A DNA stretch of 64,000 nt. Origin: Candidatus Heimdallarchaeota archaeon. GTDB lineage: Archaea; Asgardarchaeota; Heimdallarchaeia; Hodarchaeales; Hodarchaeaceae. Shown in pieces: positions 1,211-14,350 of this stretch; position 1 is the first letter of the stretch, and each line of letters opens with the position of its first letter. The stretch lies in the NCBI GenBank assembly GCA_011364965.1, contig RDOB01000005.1, positions 96,001 through 160,000 on the forward strand, given 5' to 3'. A program made the translations under genes and the position numbers. The notes beneath the pieces are model-generated. The model searched no databases. It was not told the DNA's origin and worked only from the letters and a program-made list of their open reading frames with translations.

Positions 1211-1963
1211 TTATTCTAAATCCCCCAGAAACCTTAACCTTTGTCTGTGTTGTCCATCTACAACATATTCATAAAGTACGAAGTCACCAGAGCGAACTAG
1301 TTTATCGAAAATCCTTTCACGAAGTTTTTCACCCAATTTAAAATACTCTCCAAATTCCCACCAGTCTAATTGTAAGGAGGTTCCAGTTATTGGATCTCTA
1401 GAATTCTTGAATTCGTTTCGGATCCATTCTTCTATATAAACAAGCAAATCTTTTTCTCTTTTCAGAGTATTTTGAATTACTTCAGCTTGTCTGAACGTAA
1501 TGTTTGGATAACGTTTATTTAACAGGTCTATTATTGTATCAGGGTCAATTTCTTCTCCAAAATTAGCATTTATCCTTTTATTTTGATTTTTAAGCTCTGG
1601 TTTATTGTACAGAGCCGAGATAGCGTTGAATAAGGTTAGAATATAATCTTCAGGAAGAAAACCGATCTCATTCATGTCGATTTTTACCAGTATCTTTTGA
1701 TGAGTTATATTCCAGTGCTTTACCTCTCTTCCTCCTGATTCCATTCGTTCCATGGTAAATTCTGCTAATCCTAATTCTTCGAGACTTTTTAGATGATGAA
1801 GAATCGTAGGTATCTTCTTCCGTAATTTGTCCGCTAATTGAGAGGCTGTTAATCCTTTTGGAGCATTCTGTTGGATGAGAAGAAGTATTTTTCTTCGAGT
1901 AGGATCTGCCAAAGCTTCTATAACTTGAATTCCATTGGCAGATTTATCAATATACTCTTCCAT
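1211..1963 (-). CDS. ArsR/SmtB-type winged-helix regulator with C-terminal extension
   Basis: ALADPTRRKILLLI...TASQLA...TILHHLKSLEELGL. ATG at 1963 preferred over TTG 1978. Confidence 0.8.
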   Translation of the reverse strand: MEEYIDKSANGIQVIEALADPTRRKILLLIQQNAPKGLTASQLADKLRKKIPTILHHLKSLEELGLAEFTMERMESGGREVKHWNITHQKILVKIDMNEIGFLPEDYILTLFNAISALYNKPELKNQNKRINANFGEEIDPDTIIDLLNKRYPNITFRQAEVIQNTLKREKDLLVYIEEWIRNEFKNSRDPITGTSLQLDWWEFGEYFKLGEKLRERIFDKLVRSGDFVLYEYVVDGQHRQRLRFLGDLE

Positions 1964-2175
1964 CACTTTTCGCTCCAATTACTCTGACGTCTCTCTCTTT
2001 TATATACTTCAAGTTCATGGCATCTAATAATGATTTAAATGCGAGTATATAAAGAATATAAGGTAATAATCCATTTATTACCATTCTTACCAACCTGGGT
2101 TCTTTATTCTTAAACTTTAAACTTTCAATACTGACAAAAAGACAGATCAAGTATATTTTTATTAATATGGAACAA

Positions 2176-2961: not shown

Positions 2962-3813
2962 ATGGTGAGACATTTGGTAGCTAATAAGGTGATTGTCGCT
3001 GCTTATGCTCATCCTGATGATGGTGAGTTTCTAGCTGCAGGAACACTTGCACGTTGTGTAGAAGAGGGAAATGAAGTATATGCAATTTGCGTAACGAATG
3101 GGGATCTGGGAGCAAAAACTTTGAGTAAATCGTCTAAAGAATTAGCTCAAGTTCGACAGAATGAGTTAATAGAGGCAATGAAAGTCATTGGGGGGCATCC
3201 TCCAATATTTCTAAATTGTCCTGATGGTTTTGTACGAGATCACTTAGAAGAACTTAAAGAGAGGCTTGTATATTGGTTTCGAAAATTAAAAGCAGAACTA
3301 GTTATAACATTTGATCCGTGGAAGATGTATGAAATTCATCCAGACCATATAGAAGTAGGTAGGATGGCATCAGAAGCTGCCTGTTTTGCTTGTTTTCCTT
3401 TGTTATACCCTAACCATATGAAAGAAGGTCTAGAGCCACATCAACCAGCGGAGGTTTGGTATATGTCTCCTTTTGAACATAAAGCTAACAGATTAGTTAA
3501 TATTTCCACAACCATGCGAAAAAAGATTGAAGCAGTTCTCTGTCATCAATCGCAAGTTGAGATGCTTGCAGATATGTTTATTCCAAGTGCAGATCCTCGA
3601 TCATTATCTTCTGAAGATAAAAGTCAACTTAAAGAGGCCACAGAAAATTTCTTATTAATGATTGCTCAAGGAATGGGATCTTTGTCAAATGGGAAGGTTG
3701 AACTTGCAGAAGCATTCTATGCAATTAAGGTAGGACCAGGTCATTTTGATAATTATCAAGAAATGCTTCAAGAGGCAATTGGAATACCAATAGACGAATT
3801 AGAAATAATTTAG
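2962..3813 (+). CDS. PIG-L/LmbE family deacetylase
   Basis: AHPDD, TNGD, HPDH and HQSQ motifs. Confidence 0.92.
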   Translation: MVRHLVANKVIVAAYAHPDDGEFLAAGTLARCVEEGNEVYAICVTNGDLGAKTLSKSSKELAQVRQNELIEAMKVIGGHPPIFLNCPDGFVRDHLEELKERLVYWFRKLKAELVITFDPWKMYEIHPDHIEVGRMASEAACFACFPLLYPNHMKEGLEPHQPAEVWYMSPFEHKANRLVNISTTMRKKIEAVLCHQSQVEMLADMFIPSADPRSLSSEDKSQLKEATENFLLMIAQGMGSLSNGKVELAEAFYAIKVGPGHFDNYQEMLQEAIGIPIDELEII

Positions 3814-4796
3814 ATCTGAAGTCTCTTAGTTGGAACTAATTTTATGATCTTATCAATTTGAGATTCAAGTTGGAAAAGTTCTTGTTTTCCTTTTAATTCG
3901 ATCTTAGGAGAGAAATCAAGAAGAAATTCAGGTTTTTCTTCACTTAGAATAACTAATGATCCGCTACTTCCTCCTAGTTTTACTCCAAGCACTCCATGTT
4001 GATCACAATAATTAAGCATTTCTTGGTCCATCTTTCTTTCCAATAAAACCTCAGGAGATGGATTTCCATAATAACCATATTGAGTTGTTAGTTTTTGGTT
4101 TTTATTGATCAATTCCGCCATCAAATTGATATCATTGTCAATTATTGCACGTTTACCTTGTATACCACAGTCAATTAATGATTTAATTATACTTTGGAGA
4201 GAAAAATCATTGGGATAAGCCACATATGGATATTTATGAACATCTCCACTCGAAATATTTTTACTCCTGATTCCAACCCAGAATGGAAAGTTATTCAGTG
4301 ACAATTCCTCCAAAACATAGCTATTATAATCTTTTGAGGTGAAATCCATATACATAACACCTCCTATTGTTATAATAAACCTATCTGAAGGGCCTGCTAT
4401 AATTCCAATGACATCTCGTTCAATTTTTGTGGAATAATGCGCAAGTTGTCTTTTTTCAAGTTTAAGATCAAATAATTCATCCAATCCAAGTAGTAAATTA
4501 ATTATAATAGCTGAAGATCCAGCTAATCCCCCTTGCTTGGGTATATTGGATTCGAAATTAATTTCAAATTCTTTAACATCATATCCTTGATTCTTTAGAA
4601 ACTTGAGTGAATTAAATATCAACGAATCTAATTTAATATCTTCAGAATTATTAATGGTAAATTTAAACTTATTTGTTTCTTTGATTTTTCCATCTACATA
4701 AAGATCTTTTAGGGTTGAAGATATAACAACTCCAAAATAAATATCAGAAGGATTTCCAAGAATTCCTACACGTCCATGAGTTCGATGTTTTATCAT
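3810..4796 (-). CDS. GHMP kinase, glucuronokinase-like
   Basis: GHMP motif II IPKQGGLAGSSA; N-terminal RVGILGNPSDIYFG; GIIAGPSDR, MDF and SSGDVH recall plant glucuronokinase. Confidence 0.8.
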   Translation of the reverse strand: MIKHRTHGRVGILGNPSDIYFGVVISSTLKDLYVDGKIKETNKFKFTINNSEDIKLDSLIFNSLKFLKNQGYDVKEFEINFESNIPKQGGLAGSSAIIINLLLGLDELFDLKLEKRQLAHYSTKIERDVIGIIAGPSDRFIITIGGVMYMDFTSKDYNSYVLEELSLNNFPFWVGIRSKNISSGDVHKYPYVAYPNDFSLQSIIKSLIDCGIQGKRAIIDNDINLMAELINKNQKLTTQYGYYGNPSPEVLLERKMDQEMLNYCDQHGVLGVKLGGSSGSLVILSEEKPEFLLDFSPKIELKGKQELFQLESQIDKIIKLVPTKRLQI

Positions 4797-7231
4797 TATG
4801 ACATCACATATGGAATTTTGAATGAAATTCTGAGTTTAGCTTTGTTTGAAGGCATAGTAAGATGAACATTTAGGGAATTCAGGGATTGAGAAAATATCCA
4901 CCCTTCTTGTTTAGTTTTCAACGATTCATCAACTTTAACAATATCTTTTTCTTCTAAAGTAACTTTGGTTGGCGCATTTTTAGCATAAAAAGTTAAAGTG
5001 ACTGTTTCTGTTGGAAGCGAATCGATTTCAATGACTAATTCTTCCCCAATCCAATTTACCTTTGGAAATTGTTTAGTGGAACACGTAATAAATTTCTCTG
5101 TATCTCCAATGAAAGCAACCTTTTCCCCATGAATCGGAGCTAGAATCCAGTAAGAAAAATCATTCTTACTTAATTGGGTTTTAATTGAAGTGTTGGATTC
5201 AAGAACATTTAATTTTCGGGTTTTGTAATCATAACCAACATAATTTTCATTAATACCGAGTTCTGATAATTTTATCGATTGATCCTTAATTTTACTCGGG
5301 TATAAGTTTATTGAACAGACATAATACCAGATTAAGTCCTTTTTCTGGGAAATAGTACTGATTATGTAATATTTTCTGTGAGGTTGGAACATCCTGTCAA
5401 TAGGAGTAGCAGGGCGGTCTGGTTTTAATAATAATCCATCTGAGCGACAAGTTTTCATTAATAACTCCCTATCTAAAAATTCAGCTTTGTCGGCTGGACC
5501 CACAATACCAGCACTGAGAATACTGATTAATGTAGATAATTCTGGATATTTTTCCTTATAAAAAAATCGTGTAGACTCTCTAGATGTGAGATAACAGTCA
5601 ATAAATGGCCATATTCCTAGTGCGTAAGATAGAATGCAAGTTTGGGTGAAATTAGGGATATAAAATGATTTCGGAAATCGCGCGTTGTAATCTTGAGAGC
5701 ATCGTATTTGCGTAACTGCTGGAAATTCCATTGCTTGAAGGAAGAAAGCTGGAGTGGGCATGCAATATTGAATGGTTACATCTTTCCTTGCTGCTGCAGT
5801 CGCCATATCTGAGAGCCACTTATATCCTGTGTCAGTGTTTTCTTGTAAGTATTTAAAATGTTCAAATTGATTTTTAAGCCAATCTTGTTCATAAGTAACA
5901 ATATTCCATTCCCTGCATTTTTTCATTATCATTTCCCAGAACTCTATGGAAGTTGGATGAGCCCAAAATTTCTCTATCCTATGTGGGAAATTTTCATGTC
6001 CAAAATGAAAATTTTTTTTAGCGAACCACCTGTTATGGGCGATTAAAGGTTTTTTTATCTCTTTTGAAAATTCTTCTAGACCCTGTGGAAAATTCTTTTC
6101 CAGAGGAGCCCATTCCATGTTCCCTCCAATGAATAATTTGATTATTCGGAACGGCATCCAACGATAAGCCTTTTTATACCACCAGCTATCGAGCTGGTAA
6201 TAACATATTGGTATCTTCTTCTTTTTCGCAATACTATCAATCATATTGAAAGTTTCATGGTAATTCAGATTTTTTTCTGTTCTATAGTAATAATAAGCTC
6301 CATTATCAGTCCAGAATCCTAAGTATGAGAGAATAGGATCAGTATAAGCAGATTTTCTTTCTGTTTTATAATATCTAAGTAAAATATCTCCCCATTGAAA
6401 AAAGGAGTTGTTAATTCCTTTTCCAAAAACTAAAATTGATTTATTGGAGAAAAATTTCGGAATAGTAGTAATTTTTCCCTCTATTCCAAATTCTATGAAC
6501 CCTTCTTTCTCTTTTATCACTCCAAGAAGAAAATTATTGAGGGAAGAGAGAATAATCGTATTCAAATCATTATCATAAAGCATAACAGGGCCAGTAGTAG
6601 GTTTTTCTAGTTTATCCGTTGGAGGAGCGAATAAATCATTTCTGAACGTAAATATTTTCCGATTAGGACTCCGATTTTCAAAACATGGGAATATACAACT
6701 AAGATCGTAAAAATTACCTGTTGAAACCTCATTGAATTCCTCTAGGAATTGCTGTTCGAAAAGAATGAATGAATTTTTTGTATATTCCTTAAATACAGTT
6801 TGTATTACTTTATTTTCGATCATCCAAGTTAATTTGGTAGCTTTATACTCACCTAAGATATCCTCTTGCATTGAATCCTCGATATTAGAAAGCTGAAGTG
6901 CTTTTTCACCTATTTTGGGATGAGACGAATATGTATTCCTTTTATATCTGATTTTTACAAGTCCTTCAGAAAGAGCTCTGTTCTCACCAAAATCAATGGA
7001 ATAAATCCCTGTGATCGGATTAATCGTTAACATGGGTTTTTCCTGAATAGAAATTACCTGATTTCCTTCCGCTTCGTCTTCAAGTAAGGAATTATATGTT
7101 GCATCATCTGCTTTAGCTCTCTGCTCTAAAAAAAAAGGAGCCAGAAAATATCCAATGATAGATATAATACCCAAAGTGATTATAGAGGTTAGAAGCACGA
7201 TTAGAATGAGGATTAATTCACTACCGATCAT
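4796..7231 (-). CDS. Membrane-anchored glycoside hydrolase, clan GH-D (GH36/Sip1-like)
   Basis: N-terminal TM helix; QLDSWW, YEQDW (candidate nucleophile), RCSQDY (candidate acid/base); LSAGIVGPAD...DGLLLKPDRPATP resembles the Sip1/raffinose synthase C-terminal motif. Confidence 0.65.
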   Translation of the reverse strand: MIGSELILILIVLLTSIITLGIISIIGYFLAPFFLEQRAKADDATYNSLLEDEAEGNQVISIQEKPMLTINPITGIYSIDFGENRALSEGLVKIRYKRNTYSSHPKIGEKALQLSNIEDSMQEDILGEYKATKLTWMIENKVIQTVFKEYTKNSFILFEQQFLEEFNEVSTGNFYDLSCIFPCFENRSPNRKIFTFRNDLFAPPTDKLEKPTTGPVMLYDNDLNTIILSSLNNFLLGVIKEKEGFIEFGIEGKITTIPKFFSNKSILVFGKGINNSFFQWGDILLRYYKTERKSAYTDPILSYLGFWTDNGAYYYYRTEKNLNYHETFNMIDSIAKKKKIPICYYQLDSWWYKKAYRWMPFRIIKLFIGGNMEWAPLEKNFPQGLEEFSKEIKKPLIAHNRWFAKKNFHFGHENFPHRIEKFWAHPTSIEFWEMIMKKCREWNIVTYEQDWLKNQFEHFKYLQENTDTGYKWLSDMATAAARKDVTIQYCMPTPAFFLQAMEFPAVTQIRCSQDYNARFPKSFYIPNFTQTCILSYALGIWPFIDCYLTSRESTRFFYKEKYPELSTLISILSAGIVGPADKAEFLDRELLMKTCRSDGLLLKPDRPATPIDRMFQPHRKYYIISTISQKKDLIWYYVCSINLYPSKIKDQSIKLSELGINENYVGYDYKTRKLNVLESNTSIKTQLSKNDFSYWILAPIHGEKVAFIGDTEKFITCSTKQFPKVNWIGEELVIEIDSLPTETVTLTFYAKNAPTKVTLEEKDIVKVDESLKTKQEGWIFSQSLNSLNVHLTMPSNKAKLRISFKIPYVMS

Positions 7232-7849: not shown

Positions 7850-8551
7850 ATGCCCAAGGAAAAAATCAAGCGGAGTATTGATAGAGAACACCATACATAC
7901 ACAGAGGGTGAAAGGAGAATATTTTTGCAATTAAGAGAGCGTTCAATGGAACTTTTGGAAACATTGCAAAAAATAGGATATAAAGCCTTTATTCATGGTT
8001 CCGTTGCTAGGGGAGATGTTACTGAAAGCTCCGATATTGATATTCATATACCCATTCAGATTCCGAGCTTTAAATTAGATATTTTGCATGAATTCAACAA
8101 TTCTAAAAGACGAATACTTGTCGGTACTCCAAATTCAGTAATAAAGGGGTGGATTGAACGCGATGACGGAGTTACTTTAACTTTTCCACTGAGTCGTCCC
8201 AAAGAACGTGAATTGGAGTTCTACATATTTTCTGGGCATCTTTATTTATCAGGATTACAGAAAAAAATCCGAATTGCAGGCGTTAATAAAAATTTATTAC
8301 TAATCGAACCTACGGAGAATGGTTTTTGGGCATCTTCCATAATAGAGAACCCTGAACGAGTGATACAAGTGTTAAAAATCTCTCAGAGAATTGTTGACGA
8401 GCGAATTCGTGTACTTACACGTCGTGATGCAATAGGTAGGACTGGAATAGTACTAGACTATACACTTAATCCTGAAGAAAATTTTGAGCAAGCATTAAGG
8501 TACATTGCAGATAGAAACCGGATTATAAGGAAAATCATTCAATCACAATAA
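7850..8551 (+). CDS. Archaeal-type predicted nucleotidyltransferase (Pol beta superfamily)
   Basis: HGSVARGDVTESSDIDI; C-terminal ERIRVLTRRDAIGRTG. Confidence 0.85.
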   Translation: MPKEKIKRSIDREHHTYTEGERRIFLQLRERSMELLETLQKIGYKAFIHGSVARGDVTESSDIDIHIPIQIPSFKLDILHEFNNSKRRILVGTPNSVIKGWIERDDGVTLTFPLSRPKERELEFYIFSGHLYLSGLQKKIRIAGVNKNLLLIEPTENGFWASSIIENPERVIQVLKISQRIVDERIRVLTRRDAIGRTGIVLDYTLNPEENFEQALRYIADRNRIIRKIIQSQ

Positions 8552-8665
8552 CTACCTTGAATCCCATTTTTGCCTAAACATAATCATACATATACTAGAC
8601 TGTAAATAATTTCCAGTACCATATTATAGCTCATAATTCTACCTGAAAAGGAGTTAAATCAAAAA

Positions 8666-10564
8666 ATGAGTAATATCGCTAGTTCAAAGTCAACAGATGA
8701 TCAATCAGTGTCCATATCAGTTGTGTTAATTGGAATAATATTAGGGTTAGTGATGAATTGGCTAGCACTTTACCTTAATATAGTACTTGGCCTATTATCA
8801 ATAGGAATTTCCAGCTTTGTAGTGTTATTATTTACAAGGATCGTATTGAGAGAAAGAGCAACTAAGAGAAATTTATCACTTGTCTCAATTGCATATGGCG
8901 CAACCTCCGCTGCTGAAGCTAGTGTTGGGCTCTTATTTTTGCTCTGGTTGTCAGAAAATGCCTCATCATTTAGTTTGGATTTCAATCCTCCAAGCTGGTT
9001 GCTACCAAGTTCTGAAATCATAGCTAATCGTCTTATATTTTCGGTGGAGTGGATAATACCCCTTCTCATTCATTATTTTTTGATGTTAATCCCTGGAATA
9101 TCTGGTTTAATTCTGGGGATTTATTTAGCACCCAAATTTCTCCATAATGATGAGGAATACCCTTTTCCTGGAACAATTCAGGCAGTTAAAACAGTAGAGG
9201 TTCTTGTAACGAATCAAAAATCCAAAGTACAATTATTTAAACGATTCCTATTTCTAGGTTTCATTATTGCTTTTGTTACATTATTAATTCCTGTAATTGA
9301 CTTTTCTCAAGTTAGTACAGGGATGATTTTTGGAATTATGCTTGGTACTATCGGGGTTACAATGTTTGCAGTTGGGATTGTTGTGAACAATCCAAAGATT
9401 ACCGTCCCCGCAGGAATAGCCTCAATTGCTTTTTATTCAATTTTAAGTCCAATGCTCATTGATATAGCTGATTTTCAAAGCAAAGTCGCGTTAGGGATTG
9501 TTTCCAACGATTTTTATGGTATTTATTCTTATCTACTTCAAAATACGTTTTTATCTTTCATAATTGGATTTCTACTATCAGCAGCATTACTAAATCCCAT
9601 TTTCTGGAGATTACTTAGGAATTTATATCATAAAATCAAACCAATCAAAAGCAAGAATTCAGATGCAGAGGCTTCTTTTAATCAGGTGGAATCAAAAGAG
9701 GTTGAAATAGATGTTTCACAGAATGAAAAAACTAACAGCCAACTCTCTCTTTTTCAAAAACTTATCTCAAAACTAAAAATAACTAAACGAGAATTAGTTC
9801 TCTCTGGTGTATATGTTGGAGTATTAGTAATTTCTACACTTTTCGTGGTCTTATTGGATATTCTACCTGGTGTTGAATTTGAAGTTGTTTTTCTGCTTTT
9901 AATTTGGATTTTATTACTTGCTTCAGTAATTCAGGGGTACATTACTGCCTCAACGATCGCAAAAAGCTCTACAGCTATTGGGCTCCCTTTTATTTTTGAT
10001 AATATACCAATTTTTCTGACTGGGGCTCGTGGATTACTTCCATATATAGCTACCCCAAAAGCGGAAATTGGGGAGACCATTCACATAATAACAACCTTAA
10101 AATTCGGACAACAAATGAGGATAAGACAGAAGCATACACTATCTGCGTTTCTCGCAGGTTATCTTGTTGCAGCACTTATTACACCGTTTTTTGCTCTTTT
10201 CTTATGGAATGCACTTGGAATTGGGACTGTAAATTTTCCAGCACCCGGATTTCCAATAACATTAGCAATGATCGGTCCTTTTGCCGCTGGAGCTATAGAA
10301 GTTTTCTTCAACATTGGGGAATTAATTTTAGGAGCTGGTGCAGCACTTTTCTTTCCTGGAATCGGTATTAGCATAGCTATTGGATTATTTCTTCCTCCTC
10401 ATATGGCTATCTGCCTTTCTTCGGGCGGAATTCTGGCCATATTTCTCCAGAAGCATTATGGTAAAGAATGGATGGATGATAAAGGGAAAATCATTGCTAC
10501 AGCCCTATCTGTTGGCGCAACTTTCACTGTGCCGCTTCTAATCCTAATTAACTTGATTTCATAA
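8666..10564 (+). CDS. OPT/YSL-like oligopeptide transporter
   Basis: Many TM helices; YPFPGT and FPAPG motifs. Confidence 0.65.
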   Translation: MSNIASSKSTDDQSVSISVVLIGIILGLVMNWLALYLNIVLGLLSIGISSFVVLLFTRIVLRERATKRNLSLVSIAYGATSAAEASVGLLFLLWLSENASSFSLDFNPPSWLLPSSEIIANRLIFSVEWIIPLLIHYFLMLIPGISGLILGIYLAPKFLHNDEEYPFPGTIQAVKTVEVLVTNQKSKVQLFKRFLFLGFIIAFVTLLIPVIDFSQVSTGMIFGIMLGTIGVTMFAVGIVVNNPKITVPAGIASIAFYSILSPMLIDIADFQSKVALGIVSNDFYGIYSYLLQNTFLSFIIGFLLSAALLNPIFWRLLRNLYHKIKPIKSKNSDAEASFNQVESKEVEIDVSQNEKTNSQLSLFQKLISKLKITKRELVLSGVYVGVLVISTLFVVLLDILPGVEFEVVFLLLIWILLLASVIQGYITASTIAKSSTAIGLPFIFDNIPIFLTGARGLLPYIATPKAEIGETIHIITTLKFGQQMRIRQKHTLSAFLAGYLVAALITPFFALFLWNALGIGTVNFPAPGFPITLAMIGPFAAGAIEVFFNIGELILGAGAALFFPGIGISIAIGLFLPPHMAICLSSGGILAIFLQKHYGKEWMDDKGKIIATALSVGATFTVPLLILINLIS

Positions 10565-10606: not shown

Positions 10607-11458
10607 TTGAAAATGGCATTGGATGATACTGTTGATAGACGATACCTTCTTAGGAAGTTTCACCAATCAAAAGTGATCTTGGTCGCAGATTTACATCTTG
10701 GATTTGAAGCTGAATGGTCTCATAGAGGAATTGATTCTAAAGATCCATCAATTTCATATACAATCATTGATCGATTAATGTCTGATATTAATCGTACCAA
10801 AGCGAATCATTTAATCATTTTGGGAGATATTTTCCATAGTGTGTTTGATTTCAGATCGGTGACGAAGGGAAAATCATGGAAAACTCCCGATTGGATTCTG
10901 GACAAAGTTGGATCCTATTTTAGATCAGAAATTATTTCTAGATCAGAAGTAAAACTTACAACAATTCAAGGAAATCAAGATGGTTTCCTTCGTTCTTATA
11001 TTAATAATAACTCAATAATCCCTCCCGAGGGAGAATTTCTTGAGAACTACAATCTTGGAGTTCTCCATGGCAATGTTCCACCAGCAATGGATGTTCTAAA
11101 TGCTTCTGAAATCATGCTGGGCCATATACACCCGATGATTGAATTAATTGATGAGATGGGGTTAAAGCATAAACTACCAGTTTTTGCAAGGCTTTCAATT
11201 TCTCGGGAGCAATTATTTAAAATATTTGGAATATATATTGATGAGGATGAATTATTTGACGTAGGGTTAATTGATTTGGTGAAGATCATTATTTTACCTA
11301 GTTATAATGTTCATATTCCTGGATTGGTTCTAAATAACAGGAAAGGAATCATGAAAAAAACACAAGATTTTCCTATATTGAGAAAAATTATATCTCACCC
11401 TGAATTAGAAATCCAAATGACAAATGGAGTAGTGTTAGGTAATTTAGAAGATATATAA
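10607..11458 (+). CDS. Metallophosphoesterase (Lhr-associated type)
   Basis: ADLHLG, LGD, GNQD, HG and GHIHP motifs. Confidence 0.85.
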   Translation: MKMALDDTVDRRYLLRKFHQSKVILVADLHLGFEAEWSHRGIDSKDPSISYTIIDRLMSDINRTKANHLIILGDIFHSVFDFRSVTKGKSWKTPDWILDKVGSYFRSEIISRSEVKLTTIQGNQDGFLRSYINNNSIIPPEGEFLENYNLGVLHGNVPPAMDVLNASEIMLGHIHPMIELIDEMGLKHKLPVFARLSISREQLFKIFGIYIDEDELFDVGLIDLVKIIILPSYNVHIPGLVLNNRKGIMKKTQDFPILRKIISHPELEIQMTNGVVLGNLEDI

Positions 11459-11482: not shown

Positions 11483-14350
11483 TTATCCCCAATACTCTCT
11501 GGTTCTCGAGAAATTAGCCTCATGTTCATATATTGAGGCTAGTAGATCCTCTGTATTCTTGTGAGGTTCTCTTAAGATTCTTACAGCAGTTTTTGGTCCA
11601 ATTCCCCGTCCTGCAAGAATGAAAGCAGCACTTTTTCCAAATGATAAAATTAAATCCGCTGATTTTTTAGCAGTATTCAATTCTCTTCTCTCATCTTTAG
11701 TTAATCTATCCTTAGGATTCTTTGAGACAGATCTATTAAGTAATTTTTTTATGGTTGTATTGGTAGGATGGACAACAGCCACATATCGTGACTGACATTG
11801 AGGGCAACGGATAATATCAGGTAAGCTTGCGATTCTTTGAGTTTTTTCAAATTTACATCCAATTCTCATACATACTAAACGGATCCATGTATTTTCCAAT
11901 CGTTTTTCAATTTTGTTAAGAATAACATGAGACGGTCGAATTTTCAAGACATTAAGTGAAATGGGTTGAGTAGCAGCCGCAGCAAGAGGAGAATCAAAAC
12001 TTTCAACCCGAACTACCTCTATTTGGAGTTTACCTGAAGAAATATCACTAAAAAAATCAATTACTGTTTCAATATCCATATTCTCTGAGAATATTTCATT
12101 GAGAGTTTCCTCCCCAATGATCGTATTTTTATATCTAGATAAAATAATTCTCGTCATCATGGGGGAATTCTCTACCGAATCTGTAATTGCTCCAAATCGC
12201 TGAGCTACTTGTCGAATCCTCCATGCAAAAAGGTCGCTATTCAATATTCTTTCCCTTAAAAGAGGGCCGATATGTTTAGGATTAATAGAGAAAATAATTT
12301 CATGGAAATCGATGGGCCGTGGAAGTGAGATAAAAACTGAATAAGGATCAGCTCGGTATTGGACAGATAAACCTTGTTTCGCTCCAATGATCGAAGTGAG
12401 TAATAAACCTAAAGTATCATTACCCTTGGAACCTAGAAATGTATGAAATACAGCGCTTAAACCAGTTGATTCTATTAAAACACAATTCTTTCTTGGTAAT
12501 TTCCCTAAAAGCTTCTGATTATAAATAAAATCGTGAATTTCTTTATTGATTGATGGAGACTCGTGAATTTCAGGATTTTCAGATTCAAAGAGGTCTAAAG
12601 CTGATTGAGTAACTAATTTTGAAACTGGGATTAGTTCTCCTTCCCAAGTAGGAATTGCAGCTTCCCCAACACTTTTCACTTGCCGTACTTCAATTCTATC
12701 GTCCTTTATTGATAAAAATTCCCAAGGTAAACCATTTAAAATAAAAATAGTCCCCTTCTCACCACGAGTTGCAACAAAAGATTCGTCTAATTGCCCCACA
12801 CGCTCCTTTCTTCCCACATCAAAGACATGATAACTTTTCTTTGTAGGAATACTGCTAAGATTTGAATAATAATATTTGTATGCCTTTCTTTTAGCCCTAA
12901 GGTAAACCTCGTTTGTCTCCTGATCTTTATCTATGAAGAAAAAGTAATTATCTCTTCCATATTCAAGGAGTGGCAATAAATCTTTAGCAGTATATTCAAG
13001 GAATGGTTGAGCATTCGTTATTATCATAAGAATCTTACGAACTGAAGTTTTTCCATGATCCAATAATATTCCTATAATTGCATGAAATAAAATGTCCAGG
13101 GCAGCGTTGTGTATATGAGATGATTCAATTTTTCCTCTGTTCACTAAAGTTTTAATGAGATATGATTCTAGTAATTCTCTTGGTGTCTCTGTAATAATGA
13201 TACCTTTACTTTCCAGATCTAGACCGTGACCAGATCTCCCTATTCGTTGGATAATCGTTTCAATCTGTCTTGGACTCATATACTGAATTACCAAGCTTAT
13301 TGCACCTATATCAATACCTAACTCTAAACTTGATGTGGCAATGATTAAATCAAGGTTTCCCGCTCTTACTTCGTGTTCTGCGATCATTCGTGATTGCGAA
13401 CTGAGGCTAGAATGATGTACTTCAAAATTTATTCTCTCCGACTCGTCTATAACTTCATTATATCGATTGAATCGATAACCCAGTATTTCAGCTTGCTGTC
13501 GAGTATTTGTAAATAAAAGAACAGTTCCTTTTTCCTTTTTAACAATCTCCACCACTCTTAAAAACCTTGAAGCTGCTTCATCAGTAGTATGTAAGGTTTT
13601 AGAGAATTCTTGGCTATTCACGGGAAGGAGAGTGGGAAATTCAATTTTAATTTGTAATTTTTTTAGCGGAGGAATTTCAACAATTCTCTTCCGATAACTT
13701 GTAGGAGCAAGAAAATTCATAACTTCTTCTGGATTACCCAATGTCGCTGAAAGGCCTATGCGTTGAACATGATCTGATGCACGATAACATAATCTTTCTA
13801 ATGCTAAGGAAAGTTGAATACCTCGTTTTGTACTAACCAATTCATGAATTTCATCAATAACGACCGTTTTTACATTTTTTAGATATTCACGACCCAGAAT
13901 TTTCGCTGGAAGAATAGCTTGGAATAATTCTGGGGTAGTAATTAGTATCTGCGGAGGTTTCTTTGTCTGTCTTGCTCGTTCTGATTTGGGAGTATCTCCA
14001 TGCCGTACAGCAATGGAAATCCCTAATTTCTCTGCCAATTGTGGTAGGACTCTTCGAAATATGTCACGATTTAATGCTTTTAGAGGAGTAATTATAATTG
14101 TAGAAATAGGTGTGTGTGAATTAGTTAGAATGTTGTGAATGCAAGCAATCGCAGTTCCAAATGTTTTACCTGACCCTGTGGAAGCTATTACTAAAACATC
14201 TTCATATGATATAATCGATTTAAGGTATTCCAGTTGTCCAGGGGTTGGTGTGATATTTAACTCTTCCAATACCTTTTGTATTCGCTTATCAAGCATTTGG
14301 AACGACAAAGAATGTTTTCTTCCTTTTTTATTATTTAGAATCCAAATCAT
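11483..14350 (-). CDS. lhr: Lhr-family SF2 helicase with C-terminal Cys-rich motif
   Basis: TGSGKT, DEIH, SAT, ATSSLELGIDIG, QRIGRSGH, IPTWEGE; C-terminal C..C/CPQC and RGIGPKTA. Confidence 0.92.
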   Translation of the reverse strand: MIWILNNKKGRKHSLSFQMLDKRIQKVLEELNITPTPGQLEYLKSIISYEDVLVIASTGSGKTFGTAIACIHNILTNSHTPISTIIITPLKALNRDIFRRVLPQLAEKLGISIAVRHGDTPKSERARQTKKPPQILITTPELFQAILPAKILGREYLKNVKTVVIDEIHELVSTKRGIQLSLALERLCYRASDHVQRIGLSATLGNPEEVMNFLAPTSYRKRIVEIPPLKKLQIKIEFPTLLPVNSQEFSKTLHTTDEAASRFLRVVEIVKKEKGTVLLFTNTRQQAEILGYRFNRYNEVIDESERINFEVHHSSLSSQSRMIAEHEVRAGNLDLIIATSSLELGIDIGAISLVIQYMSPRQIETIIQRIGRSGHGLDLESKGIIITETPRELLESYLIKTLVNRGKIESSHIHNAALDILFHAIIGILLDHGKTSVRKILMIITNAQPFLEYTAKDLLPLLEYGRDNYFFFIDKDQETNEVYLRAKRKAYKYYYSNLSSIPTKKSYHVFDVGRKERVGQLDESFVATRGEKGTIFILNGLPWEFLSIKDDRIEVRQVKSVGEAAIPTWEGELIPVSKLVTQSALDLFESENPEIHESPSINKEIHDFIYNQKLLGKLPRKNCVLIESTGLSAVFHTFLGSKGNDTLGLLLTSIIGAKQGLSVQYRADPYSVFISLPRPIDFHEIIFSINPKHIGPLLRERILNSDLFAWRIRQVAQRFGAITDSVENSPMMTRIILSRYKNTIIGEETLNEIFSENMDIETVIDFFSDISSGKLQIEVVRVESFDSPLAAAATQPISLNVLKIRPSHVILNKIEKRLENTWIRLVCMRIGCKFEKTQRIASLPDIIRCPQCQSRYVAVVHPTNTTIKKLLNRSVSKNPKDRLTKDERRELNTAKKSADLILSFGKSAAFILAGRGIGPKTAVRILREPHKNTEDLLASIYEHEANFSRTREYWG

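Follow-up and report, generated by a model that had tools for sequence, protein, structure and literature searches.

The question raised by this locus is what a sugar kinase and a glycosidase-like protein, encoded by two overlapping genes, do together in an Asgard archaeon. The two genes lie in positions 96,001 to 160,000 of contig RDOB01000005.1 of the Candidatus Heimdallarchaeota archaeon assembly GCA_011364965.1; the whole of this 64,000-nucleotide (nt) stretch is called the window here, and coordinates given without a locus name are window positions. The upstream gene, an intact open reading frame (ORF) on the minus strand at 4796..7231, encodes P0002, an 811-amino-acid (aa) protein with the fold of glycoside hydrolase (GH) clan GH-D that belongs to an unnamed family. 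The downstream gene, also an intact ORF on the minus strand (3810..4796), encodes P0001, a GHMP kinase of 328 aa. A first-pass annotation of the window had described the pair as a novel glycosidase coupled to a plant-type glucuronokinase (GlcAK), and had proposed a module for the release and salvage of uronic acids that would be relevant to the origin of the eukaryotic pathway. The reading that we lean towards is that the pair is an accessory operon in which an alpha-linked sugar would be released and then phosphorylated at its anomeric position for re-use. By analogy, the unit most likely works like an alpha-galactosidase with a galactokinase (GalK), its parts being a clan GH-D enzyme of a new family and a GlcAK-like kinase of a basal branch confined to Asgard archaea.

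The overlap between the two genes is as the first-pass annotation had given it: the sequence TAATG on the minus strand at 4794..4798, which reads CATTA on the plus strand, means that the TAA stop of P0002 and the ATG start of P0001 have one base in common. Inspection of the sequence also finds a partial Shine-Dalgarno-like element, GTGAT, 6 nt 5' of the P0001 ATG. One-base stop/start overlaps are frequent in operons and are unremarkable alone. Promoter and terminator scans at the locus gave no signal exceeding the shuffled expectation. The closest homologues of both proteins carry the names of Hodarchaeota or Promethearchaeota metagenome-assembled genomes (MAGs), which supports the Asgard host that had been suspected.

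The family of the kinase can be narrowed by exclusion. P0001 has a single Pfam domain, GHMP_kinases_N (PF00288; 2.6e-15, 56.8 bits against a cut-off of 22.3), and its phosphate-binding motif, P86..G90-L-A-G93-S94-S, is present and conserved and corresponds to the GHMP pattern PxxxGLxSSA. The NCBIfam models for galactokinase, mevalonate kinase (MVK), HddA, IspE and ThrB gave only 20-55 bits against cut-offs of 140-600. The two MVK models gave 45 bits against 163 (TIGR00549) and 52.7 against 403 (NF003036), the HddA model gave 47.8 bits against 600 (NF049969), and the galactokinase model gave 55.3 bits against 443 (NF003006), with the GEHxDY signature reading GNPSDIY in P0001. Several relatives of P0001 are labelled mevalonate kinase in GenBank. 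The same genome encodes three other GHMP kinases: an MVK (TIGR00549, 231.9 bits against 163), a galactokinase-like protein (L001) and a pantoate-kinase-like protein whose gene adjoins a ketopantoate reductase gene. Since a bona fide MVK is encoded elsewhere in the genome and P0001 scores low on the MVK models, P0001 is not the mevalonate kinase of the organism.

The comparison with glucuronokinases gave a different picture. We used a hidden Markov model (HMM) of 64 core-clade GlcAK sequences, comprising plant, fungal and other eukaryotic, and bacterial proteins named glucuronokinase by the Joint Genome Institute (JGI). With this HMM P0001 scored 158 bits against 51 for the MVK and 42 for the GalK-like protein of the same genome, while true members scored 465-515 bits. 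In the reverse test, an HMM of Asgard kinases only gave 112 bits for plant GlcAK against 45 for the MVK and 28 for the GalK-like protein. When 1.84 billion representatives were searched exhaustively with HMMER, only two relatives of P0001 fell below E 1e-30, with a gradual tail behind them. This tail includes 'glucuronokinase 1 [Ziziphus jujuba]' (P0184; 30% identity, E 1.2e-16) and fungal proteins (560-660 aa) whose kinase part stands behind an N-terminal extension, an architecture known from zebrafish GKUP and from fungi (PMC3938481). The top ESM Atlas cluster for P0001 is named 'putative Glucuronokinase'. The kinase segments that the first-pass annotation had quoted are all found in P0001 (residues 2-22, 84-98, 131-139, 150-152 and 182-187), and the likeness to plant glucuronokinase for which they were quoted is borne out by alignment of the P0001 motifs with the Z. 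jujuba enzyme and, at motif I, with the Lilium GlcAK peptide VGFLGNPSDVYFGR (PMC2823444). Its view that P0001 is nearer to GlcAK than to MVK, GalK or HddA also held (158 bits against 42-51 on the core HMM; 48-55 bits against cut-offs of 403-600 on the NCBIfam GalK, MVK and HddA models). P0001 is, judged by its sequence, a member of the glucuronokinase-like (GlcAK-like) branch of the GHMP kinases.

Membership of this branch does not make P0001 a glucuronokinase. P0001 and the plant and animal enzymes (EC 2.7.1.43; Arabidopsis GlcAK, zebrafish GKUP; KEGG K16190-type) have in common the GHMP fold and the motifs R..GxLGNPSD, NIPxQxGLxGSSAI, GIxAGxxDR, YMDF, SSGxVH and K(F/L)xGSxG, but their identity is only 24-30%, P0001 stands outside the core clade and has an insert of its own, and there is no pyrophosphorylase gene nearby. 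The phylogeny was calculated with FastTree (182 rows) and with IQ-TREE under LG+C20 (57 rows), using the MVK and GalK-like protein of the same genome as outgroups and without named HddA, fucokinase, arabinokinase or galacturonokinase sequences. The Asgard kinases group as a single clade (100/100), basal in the superfamily, whose long stem measures 1.1-1.55 substitutions per site. Several nodes deeper, and set apart from them by a 100/99 branch, lies the core GlcAK clade (99/95); the FastTree topology concurs. Constraining the Asgard and core clades to group together cost 37.5 log-likelihood units (approximately unbiased (AU) test, p = 0.041), a marginal result for a grouping that was chosen after inspection of the tree. 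The trees therefore agree with the first-pass annotation in that P0001 does not group with MVK or GalK, but they place it in a basal clade of Asgard sequences outside the core GlcAK clade (in a sampling without HddA). In both trees the eukaryotic GlcAKs group with bacterial ones inside the core clade.

Residues that characterize the core GlcAK clade are also missing. The P0001 clade lacks the core insert of about 25 residues (G..GYxGGxRL..F), the Arg of NFxLRR that is invariant in the core clade, the VRxR Arg (94% in the core), the DRVxQ Gln and the Lys/Arg after GNPSDxxxG (89%), and it carries its own insert (PSPEVLLERKMD). Several of the residues lost relative to the core are basic, which would argue against carrying over an acidic-sugar specificity to P0001; a PDB search found no solved GlcAK structure. 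P0001 is best classified from these sequence comparisons as a member of the GlcAK-like superfamily but not as an orthologue of GlcAK. A plant GlcAK query against 201 Asgard genomes found no close orthologue (best match, 58.8 bits), and the P0001 clade was present in 4 of these 201 genomes and in 0 of the 9 genomes of the same genus. Because no close GlcAK orthologue was found in the 201 Asgard genomes and the P0001 clade is sparse among them, and with the eukaryotic GlcAKs nested among bacterial ones, an Asgard origin of the eukaryotic enzyme is unsupported. Another group of Asgard GHMP proteins, about 424 aa long, was observed next to a class I lysyl-tRNA synthetase gene (L026-L031; for example, L027:1330-2604 on the minus strand); it gave 135-155 bits on a glucuronokinase-like seed HMM, and its match to plant GlcAK is as weak as that of the P0001 clade.

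The predicted structure of P0001 suggests what kind of reaction should be expected. The AlphaFold2 model (predicted local distance difference test score, pLDDT, 95.1) has the two-domain GHMP fold, and its best structural match by VIA-align is the Pyrococcus horikoshii galactokinase (Z 33.7, root-mean-square deviation (rmsd) 2.3 A over 299 residues). The next folds after the galactokinases are the heptokinase WcbL (Z 31.9) and the mevalonate kinases (Z 30.6), with many other GHMP kinases at Z 24-32; the two nearest, GalK and WcbL, are both anomeric sugar kinases. Three motifs, all encoded on the minus strand, can be recognised. Motif I (4743..4772) contains R9 and G14-N15-P16-S17-D18 and is the sugar-binding loop, equivalent to R..GEHxD of GalK. 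Motif II (4515..4541), P86-x3-G-L-x-G-S-S, is the phosphate-binding loop. The third, G135-P-S-D138 (4383..4394), contains the putative catalytic base Asp138, which aligns with the Asp of GalK GILDQ. Residues G14, P16, D18 and D138 are invariant across the GlcAK-like superfamily and R9 is nearly so. In the alignment with the Pyrococcus GalK, Arg9 and Asp18 pair with R11 and D20, its catalytic Arg and its sugar-binding Asp, and Asp138 pairs with its catalytic base. GalK is thus the best structural match and its catalytic Arg and Asp are kept, but P0001 has GNPSDIY in place of the galactose-binding GEHxDY, and the genome has the separate GalK-like gene.

Phosphorylation of the anomeric hydroxyl is supported by the partners of related kinases. 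Some superfamily members are fused to sugar-1-phosphate nucleotidyltransferases (P0019; the fungal proteins of 560-660 aa), and in the neighbouring basal clade c15, found on marine bacterial contigs (L118, L119, L122 and L126), a gene for a GalU-like uridylyltransferase stands directly 5' of the kinase gene. The c15 kinase gene is followed by one for a gamma-carbonic-anhydrase-like hexapeptide-repeat protein. We had considered whether nucleotidyltransferase, kinase and this left-handed beta-helix (LbH) protein formed a 'split GlmU' and dropped the idea, as the third member proved to resemble gamma-carbonic anhydrase / PaaY (170 bits); the assignment of the GalU-like transferase is unaffected.

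The upstream protein, P0002, has no Pfam (E <= 0.1), NCBIfam or PDB sequence match. It nevertheless has more than 800 homologues, with at least 568 loci in species-representative genomes, in Asgard archaea, Myxococcota-type bacteria and other bacteria. Its AlphaFold2 model (pLDDT 93.3; predicted template modelling score, pTM, 0.94) consists of an N-terminal helix, a beta-sandwich, a (beta/alpha)8 barrel and C-terminal beta-sandwiches, in this order, which is the layout of clan GH-D. The top Foldseek match is 7exf, the Arabidopsis protein AtAkaGal3 (E 2.9e-27), and the top VIA-align match is 7exj (Z 26.1, rmsd 3.5 A over 612 residues, spanning model residues 64-804 and three domains). AtAkaGal3 is an alkaline alpha-galactosidase of the GH36 raffinose-synthase group, with Asp383 (KVD) as nucleophile and Asp447 (RASDD) as acid/base (PMC9912918). 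Lower matches are GH36 and GH27 alpha-galactosidases (Z 18-20), the galactosaminidase FpGalNase (E 6e-21, Z 17.3), GH31 and GH97, with the GH36, GH27 and GH31 enzymes as a whole at Z 17-20, and the nearest named ESM Atlas clusters are Raffinose_syn and Melibiase. The prediction of a novel glycosidase is in this way supported by the fold and by the lack of any Pfam or NCBIfam match. The predicted release of uronic acids finds no such backing: the close structural relatives are all of the alpha-galactosidase, alpha-galactosaminidase or alpha-glucosidase type, and no uronidase is present among the solved clan GH-D structures listed as matches of the model.

Candidate catalytic residues of P0002 can be proposed by comparison with AtAkaGal3. 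E448-Q449-D450 (5882..5890, minus strand) lies where barrel strand 4 ends (E444-449 in the model); it takes the place of the clan KxD motif, with a Glu instead of the Lys, and Asp450 is the putative nucleophile. R510-C-S-Q-D514 (5690..5704, minus strand) is an RxxxD motif after strand 6 with Asp514 as putative acid/base. E448, Q449, D450, W451, R510 and D514 are invariant in 56 homologues. A HMMER profile of the family searched against the PDB aligned R510/D514 to R443/D447 of 7exf, at an E-value of 0.14 that is not significant alone, and the spacing of 64 residues between D450 and D514 is identical to that between D383 and D447 of AtAkaGal3. The two proteins (AtAkaGal3, PDB 7exf-7exj) are collinear in all three domains and appear alike in the putative RxxxD motif, in the candidate strand-4 Asp and in the spacing between them, but they are only 12-14% identical, P0002 has EQD for KxD and DSWW for DDGW, and it has an N-terminal membrane anchor. 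P0002 also falls outside GH36 as defined by sequence, with no significant match to Pfam Melibiase or Raffinose_syn. It is reasonable to consider P0002 a new sequence family of clan GH-D as far as Pfam, NCBIfam and PDB sequence searches and the model indicate; the model may also fit a transglycosidase activity such as that of the raffinose synthases.

The side of the membrane on which P0002 acts affects how it could work with a soluble kinase. The N-terminal transmembrane anchor covers residues about 6-35 (7127..7216, minus strand; helix 2-41 in the model), with no Lys or Arg before it and R38 and K40 after it. A bias in the same direction is seen in 35 of 42 homologues with a clear N-terminal transmembrane segment, where Lys and Arg are more numerous behind the helix than in front of it (mean 2.45 against 0.57). 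Under the positive-inside rule, Lys and Arg after the helix predict that the catalytic domain of the Asgard proteins is cytoplasmic (N-out/C-in), and with such a domain the kinase could take the released product directly. The shorter bacterial homologues start with positively charged N-termini that resemble signal peptides, and it may be that Asgard and bacterial members differ in the side of the membrane on which they act.

The mechanism that we propose for the pair is as follows. P0002 would be a retaining alpha-glycosidase or transglycosidase, with Asp450 as nucleophile and Asp514 as acid/base, held at the membrane by its single N-terminal helix with the catalytic domain probably facing the cytoplasm. 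P0001, translated from the overlapping start, would be a soluble GHMP kinase that, by analogy with galactokinase and glucuronokinase, uses Asp138 as base together with Arg9 to transfer the ATP gamma-phosphate to the anomeric (C1) hydroxyl of the sugar set free by P0002. Nine bacterial-type sugar-1-phosphate nucleotidyltransferases (PF00483) are encoded elsewhere in the same genome, and one of them could use the sugar-1-phosphate so formed. Operons of alpha-galactosidase and galK follow the same logic, with a GH36-type enzyme followed by an anomeric kinase.

The pair has a narrow genomic distribution. Apart from the present locus, the P0002-P0001 pair was found in one Hodarchaeota MAG only (L007), where the proteins are 55-58% identical to those of the window and the order glycosidase-kinase-PIG-L-ArsR is kept, with a gap of 39 nt between glycosidase and kinase genes. 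In the window, the PIG-L family de-N-acetylase gene (2962..3813, plus strand; 283 aa, Pfam PIG-L 1.2e-28) is convergent with P0001, their 3' ends overlapping by 4 nt, and the ArsR-type helix-turn-helix (HTH) regulator syntenic with that of L007 is at 1211..1978 on the minus strand; the latter is a possible local regulator. The PIG-L homologue of L007 is split into two ORFs of 143 and 108 aa (L007:5760-6599), which could reflect a frameshift, gene decay or an assembly error.

Elsewhere the kinase orthologues have other neighbours. Those of L005, L012 and L013 stand next to a GNAT of 374-378 aa and a small GTPase. In another subclade (L009-L011, L112 and L114-L117; kinase at 6001-6990 or 8001-8999) a D-aminoacyl-tRNA-deacylase-like gene (PF04414) lies 1 nt upstream of the kinase, preceded by a gene for a 313-aa acetyltransferase, and an ArgD-like aminotransferase, a GlmS-isomerase / NagB-II-like SIS protein and a NUDIX gene are found nearby. 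What would connect a tRNA deacylase with a sugar kinase is not obvious. Genes of about 290 aa convergent with the kinase in L009, L010 and L005 were tested as PIG-L homologues and are not PIG-L.

Several observations count against an operon for sugar release and re-use. A GHMP kinase occurs in only 2 of 82 glycosidase loci, the other 80 having none nearby, and the pair accounts for 2 of about 15 kinase contexts examined, so that the first-pass idea of a conserved two-gene module did not survive the comparison. The locus contains no gene for a nucleotidyltransferase or a sugar transporter. The replacements of Lys by Glu and of DD by DS make the -1 site of P0002 unlike that of the known enzymes, and the positive-inside rule is the sole basis of the predicted topology. 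Neither gene was found in the 9 congeneric genomes, and among the 201 Asgard genomes the two co-occur only in this one. With two genomes carrying the pair and none of nine congeners, this is an accessory pair confined to a lineage, and no pathway conserved across Asgard archaea.

The identity of the sugar can be read in other ways, and the neighbouring PIG-L gene suggests one that we regard as possible, if rather unlikely: PIG-L would deacetylate a terminal alpha-N-acetylhexosamine, possibly linked to inositol, P0002 would cleave the resulting alpha-hexosaminide, and P0001 would phosphorylate the hexosamine or inositol. Among solved structures, the PIG-L neighbour comes closest to diacetylchitobiose deacetylases of Thermococcales, 3wl4 and 8bgn (E 4e-26 to 4e-24); on the BshB1 model it scored 88.8 bits, under the cut-off. 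This chitobiose-deacetylase-like gene is syntenic in L007, and a PIG-L gene occurs again near a bacterial P0002 homologue of the signal-peptide type, in a glycan-degradation cluster (L080:53-16280) with GH2, a GH84-like NAGidase (beta-N-acetylglucosaminidase), a TetR regulator, a PKD protein and two GH92 genes. FpGalNase, which is among the best fold matches of P0002, provides a parallel. The Flavonifractor GH36 galactosaminidase acts after a deacetylase. Its system (N-acetylgalactosamine (GalNAc) deacetylase and GH36 galactosaminidase of Flavonifractor plautii; PDB 8x1b, 9awt) resembles the present locus in having a GH36-fold enzyme near a de-N-acetylase gene, but the deacetylase is of a family other than PIG-L and the fold match to P0002 is weaker than that of AtAkaGal3. 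The Lys to Glu change in the -1 site, the acetyltransferases and the GlmS-isomerase / NagB-II-like protein near other kinase orthologues, the binding of galactinol by the top fold match and an IMPase-family gene at 378-1196 of the window would also fit. This evidence is contextual throughout, however, and GNAT and IMPase-family genes are widespread. The PIG-L gene is on the strand opposite to the pair, the c15 LbH protein is not a sugar acetyltransferase, and an inositol cluster and a GHMP kinase never occur together in the 82 glycosidase loci. We know of no GHMP kinases specific for hexosamines or inositol.

It is also conceivable, although improbable in our judgement, that the adjacency is recent and without functional meaning, and that the role of the kinase is unrelated to the glycosidase and perhaps tied to the deacylase-like or acetyltransferase neighbours that it has elsewhere; the pair would then have no more than a transcript in common, in one lineage. 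The three kinase contexts in three subclades, the pair's presence in so few glycosidase loci and the failure to find either gene in the 9 congeneric genomes speak for this view. On the other side, the gene order is kept together with PIG-L and ArsR at 55-58% protein identity, and a Shine-Dalgarno-like element precedes the stop/start overlap. A glycosidase with a sugar kinase behind it also makes biochemical sense and is known from many cases, such as the aga-galK operons.

A further reading, which we consider more doubtful still, starts from the wider P0002 family. In 18 archaeal species-level loci (L037, L038, L040, L045, L046, L048, L050, L053, L055-L058, L061, L063, L065, L066, L070 and L073; also L015 and L017-L022) a P0002-family gene stands between a divergent myo-inositol-1-phosphate synthase gene and a gene on the same strand for an ITPK1-like ATP-grasp kinase (PF05770), and a second ITPK-like paralogue, an ATP-grasp protein, a HAD hydrolase, BacA and a low-molecular-weight phosphatase are encoded near these loci. 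The Asgard ITPK/IPS cluster was noted by Desfougeres et al. (PMC6900528), and we found no publication linking a glycosidase-fold gene to it. AtAkaGal3 binds galactinol, which is a galactosyl-inositol (PMC9912918), and the genome of the window has two myo-inositol-1-phosphate synthase genes (G000 C9:29026-29343 and C11:388835-389155). The P0002 family might cleave alpha-glycosyl-inositols, either galactinol-like solutes or the head groups of lipids resembling glycosylphosphatidylinositol (GPI), with glucosamine alpha-linked to inositol, at the cytoplasmic face of the membrane; here the GlcAK-like kinase and PIG-L would replace the ITPK-like partner, giving a recycling of head groups. If this were true, the P0002 family would be an unrecognised part of Asgard inositol metabolism, amid genes that have been connected with the beginnings of inositol-phosphate signalling in eukaryotes.

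Glucuronokinase makes glucuronate-1-phosphate in the eukaryotic salvage of UDP-glucuronate (UDP-GlcA). The proposal that P0002 frees glucuronate or galacturonate and that P0001 is a true glucuronokinase, making glucuronate-1-phosphate for UDP-GlcA in a module ancestral to eukaryotic salvage, has for it the motifs, the Z. jujuba match, the ESM Atlas cluster and a UDP-glucose dehydrogenase family gene in the genome, and we consider it very improbable given the position of the Asgard clade outside the core clade, the absence of the core insert and of the core Arg, Gln and Lys positions, the nesting of eukaryotic GlcAKs among bacterial ones, the distribution in Asgard genomes and the lack of a uronidase among the solved GH-D matches. 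Searches of the genome also gave no match for MIOX (PF05153), a eukaryote-type UDP-sugar pyrophosphorylase (PF01704) or ITPK (PF05770), negatives that are weak because the genome is 87% complete and the models were silent in the control genomes as well. As a whole, the context points away from uronic acids as the sugar of the pair, and the PIG-L and inositol themes are leads.

At a greater distance from the pair, the window contains an SbcD-related / PdeM-like phosphoesterase gene (10607-11458, plus strand) beside a gene for a large Lhr-type helicase (11483-14350, minus strand). These are probably a DNA-repair pair with no relation to P0001 and P0002.

This locus does not support the idea that the pathway by which eukaryotes salvage UDP-glucuronate had an ancestor in archaea. 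What the pair of an alpha-glycosidase-like protein and a putative anomeric sugar kinase does provide is a testable function for two families: a clan GH-D family with more than 800 members and no Pfam or NCBIfam model, and an Asgard-only basal branch of the GlcAK-like kinases. Characterization of the kinase would reveal how anomeric sugar kinases supplying the salvage of nucleotide sugars came by their choice of substrate, and characterization of the glycosidase could explain the position of the P0002 family inside the Asgard inositol-phosphate gene cluster.

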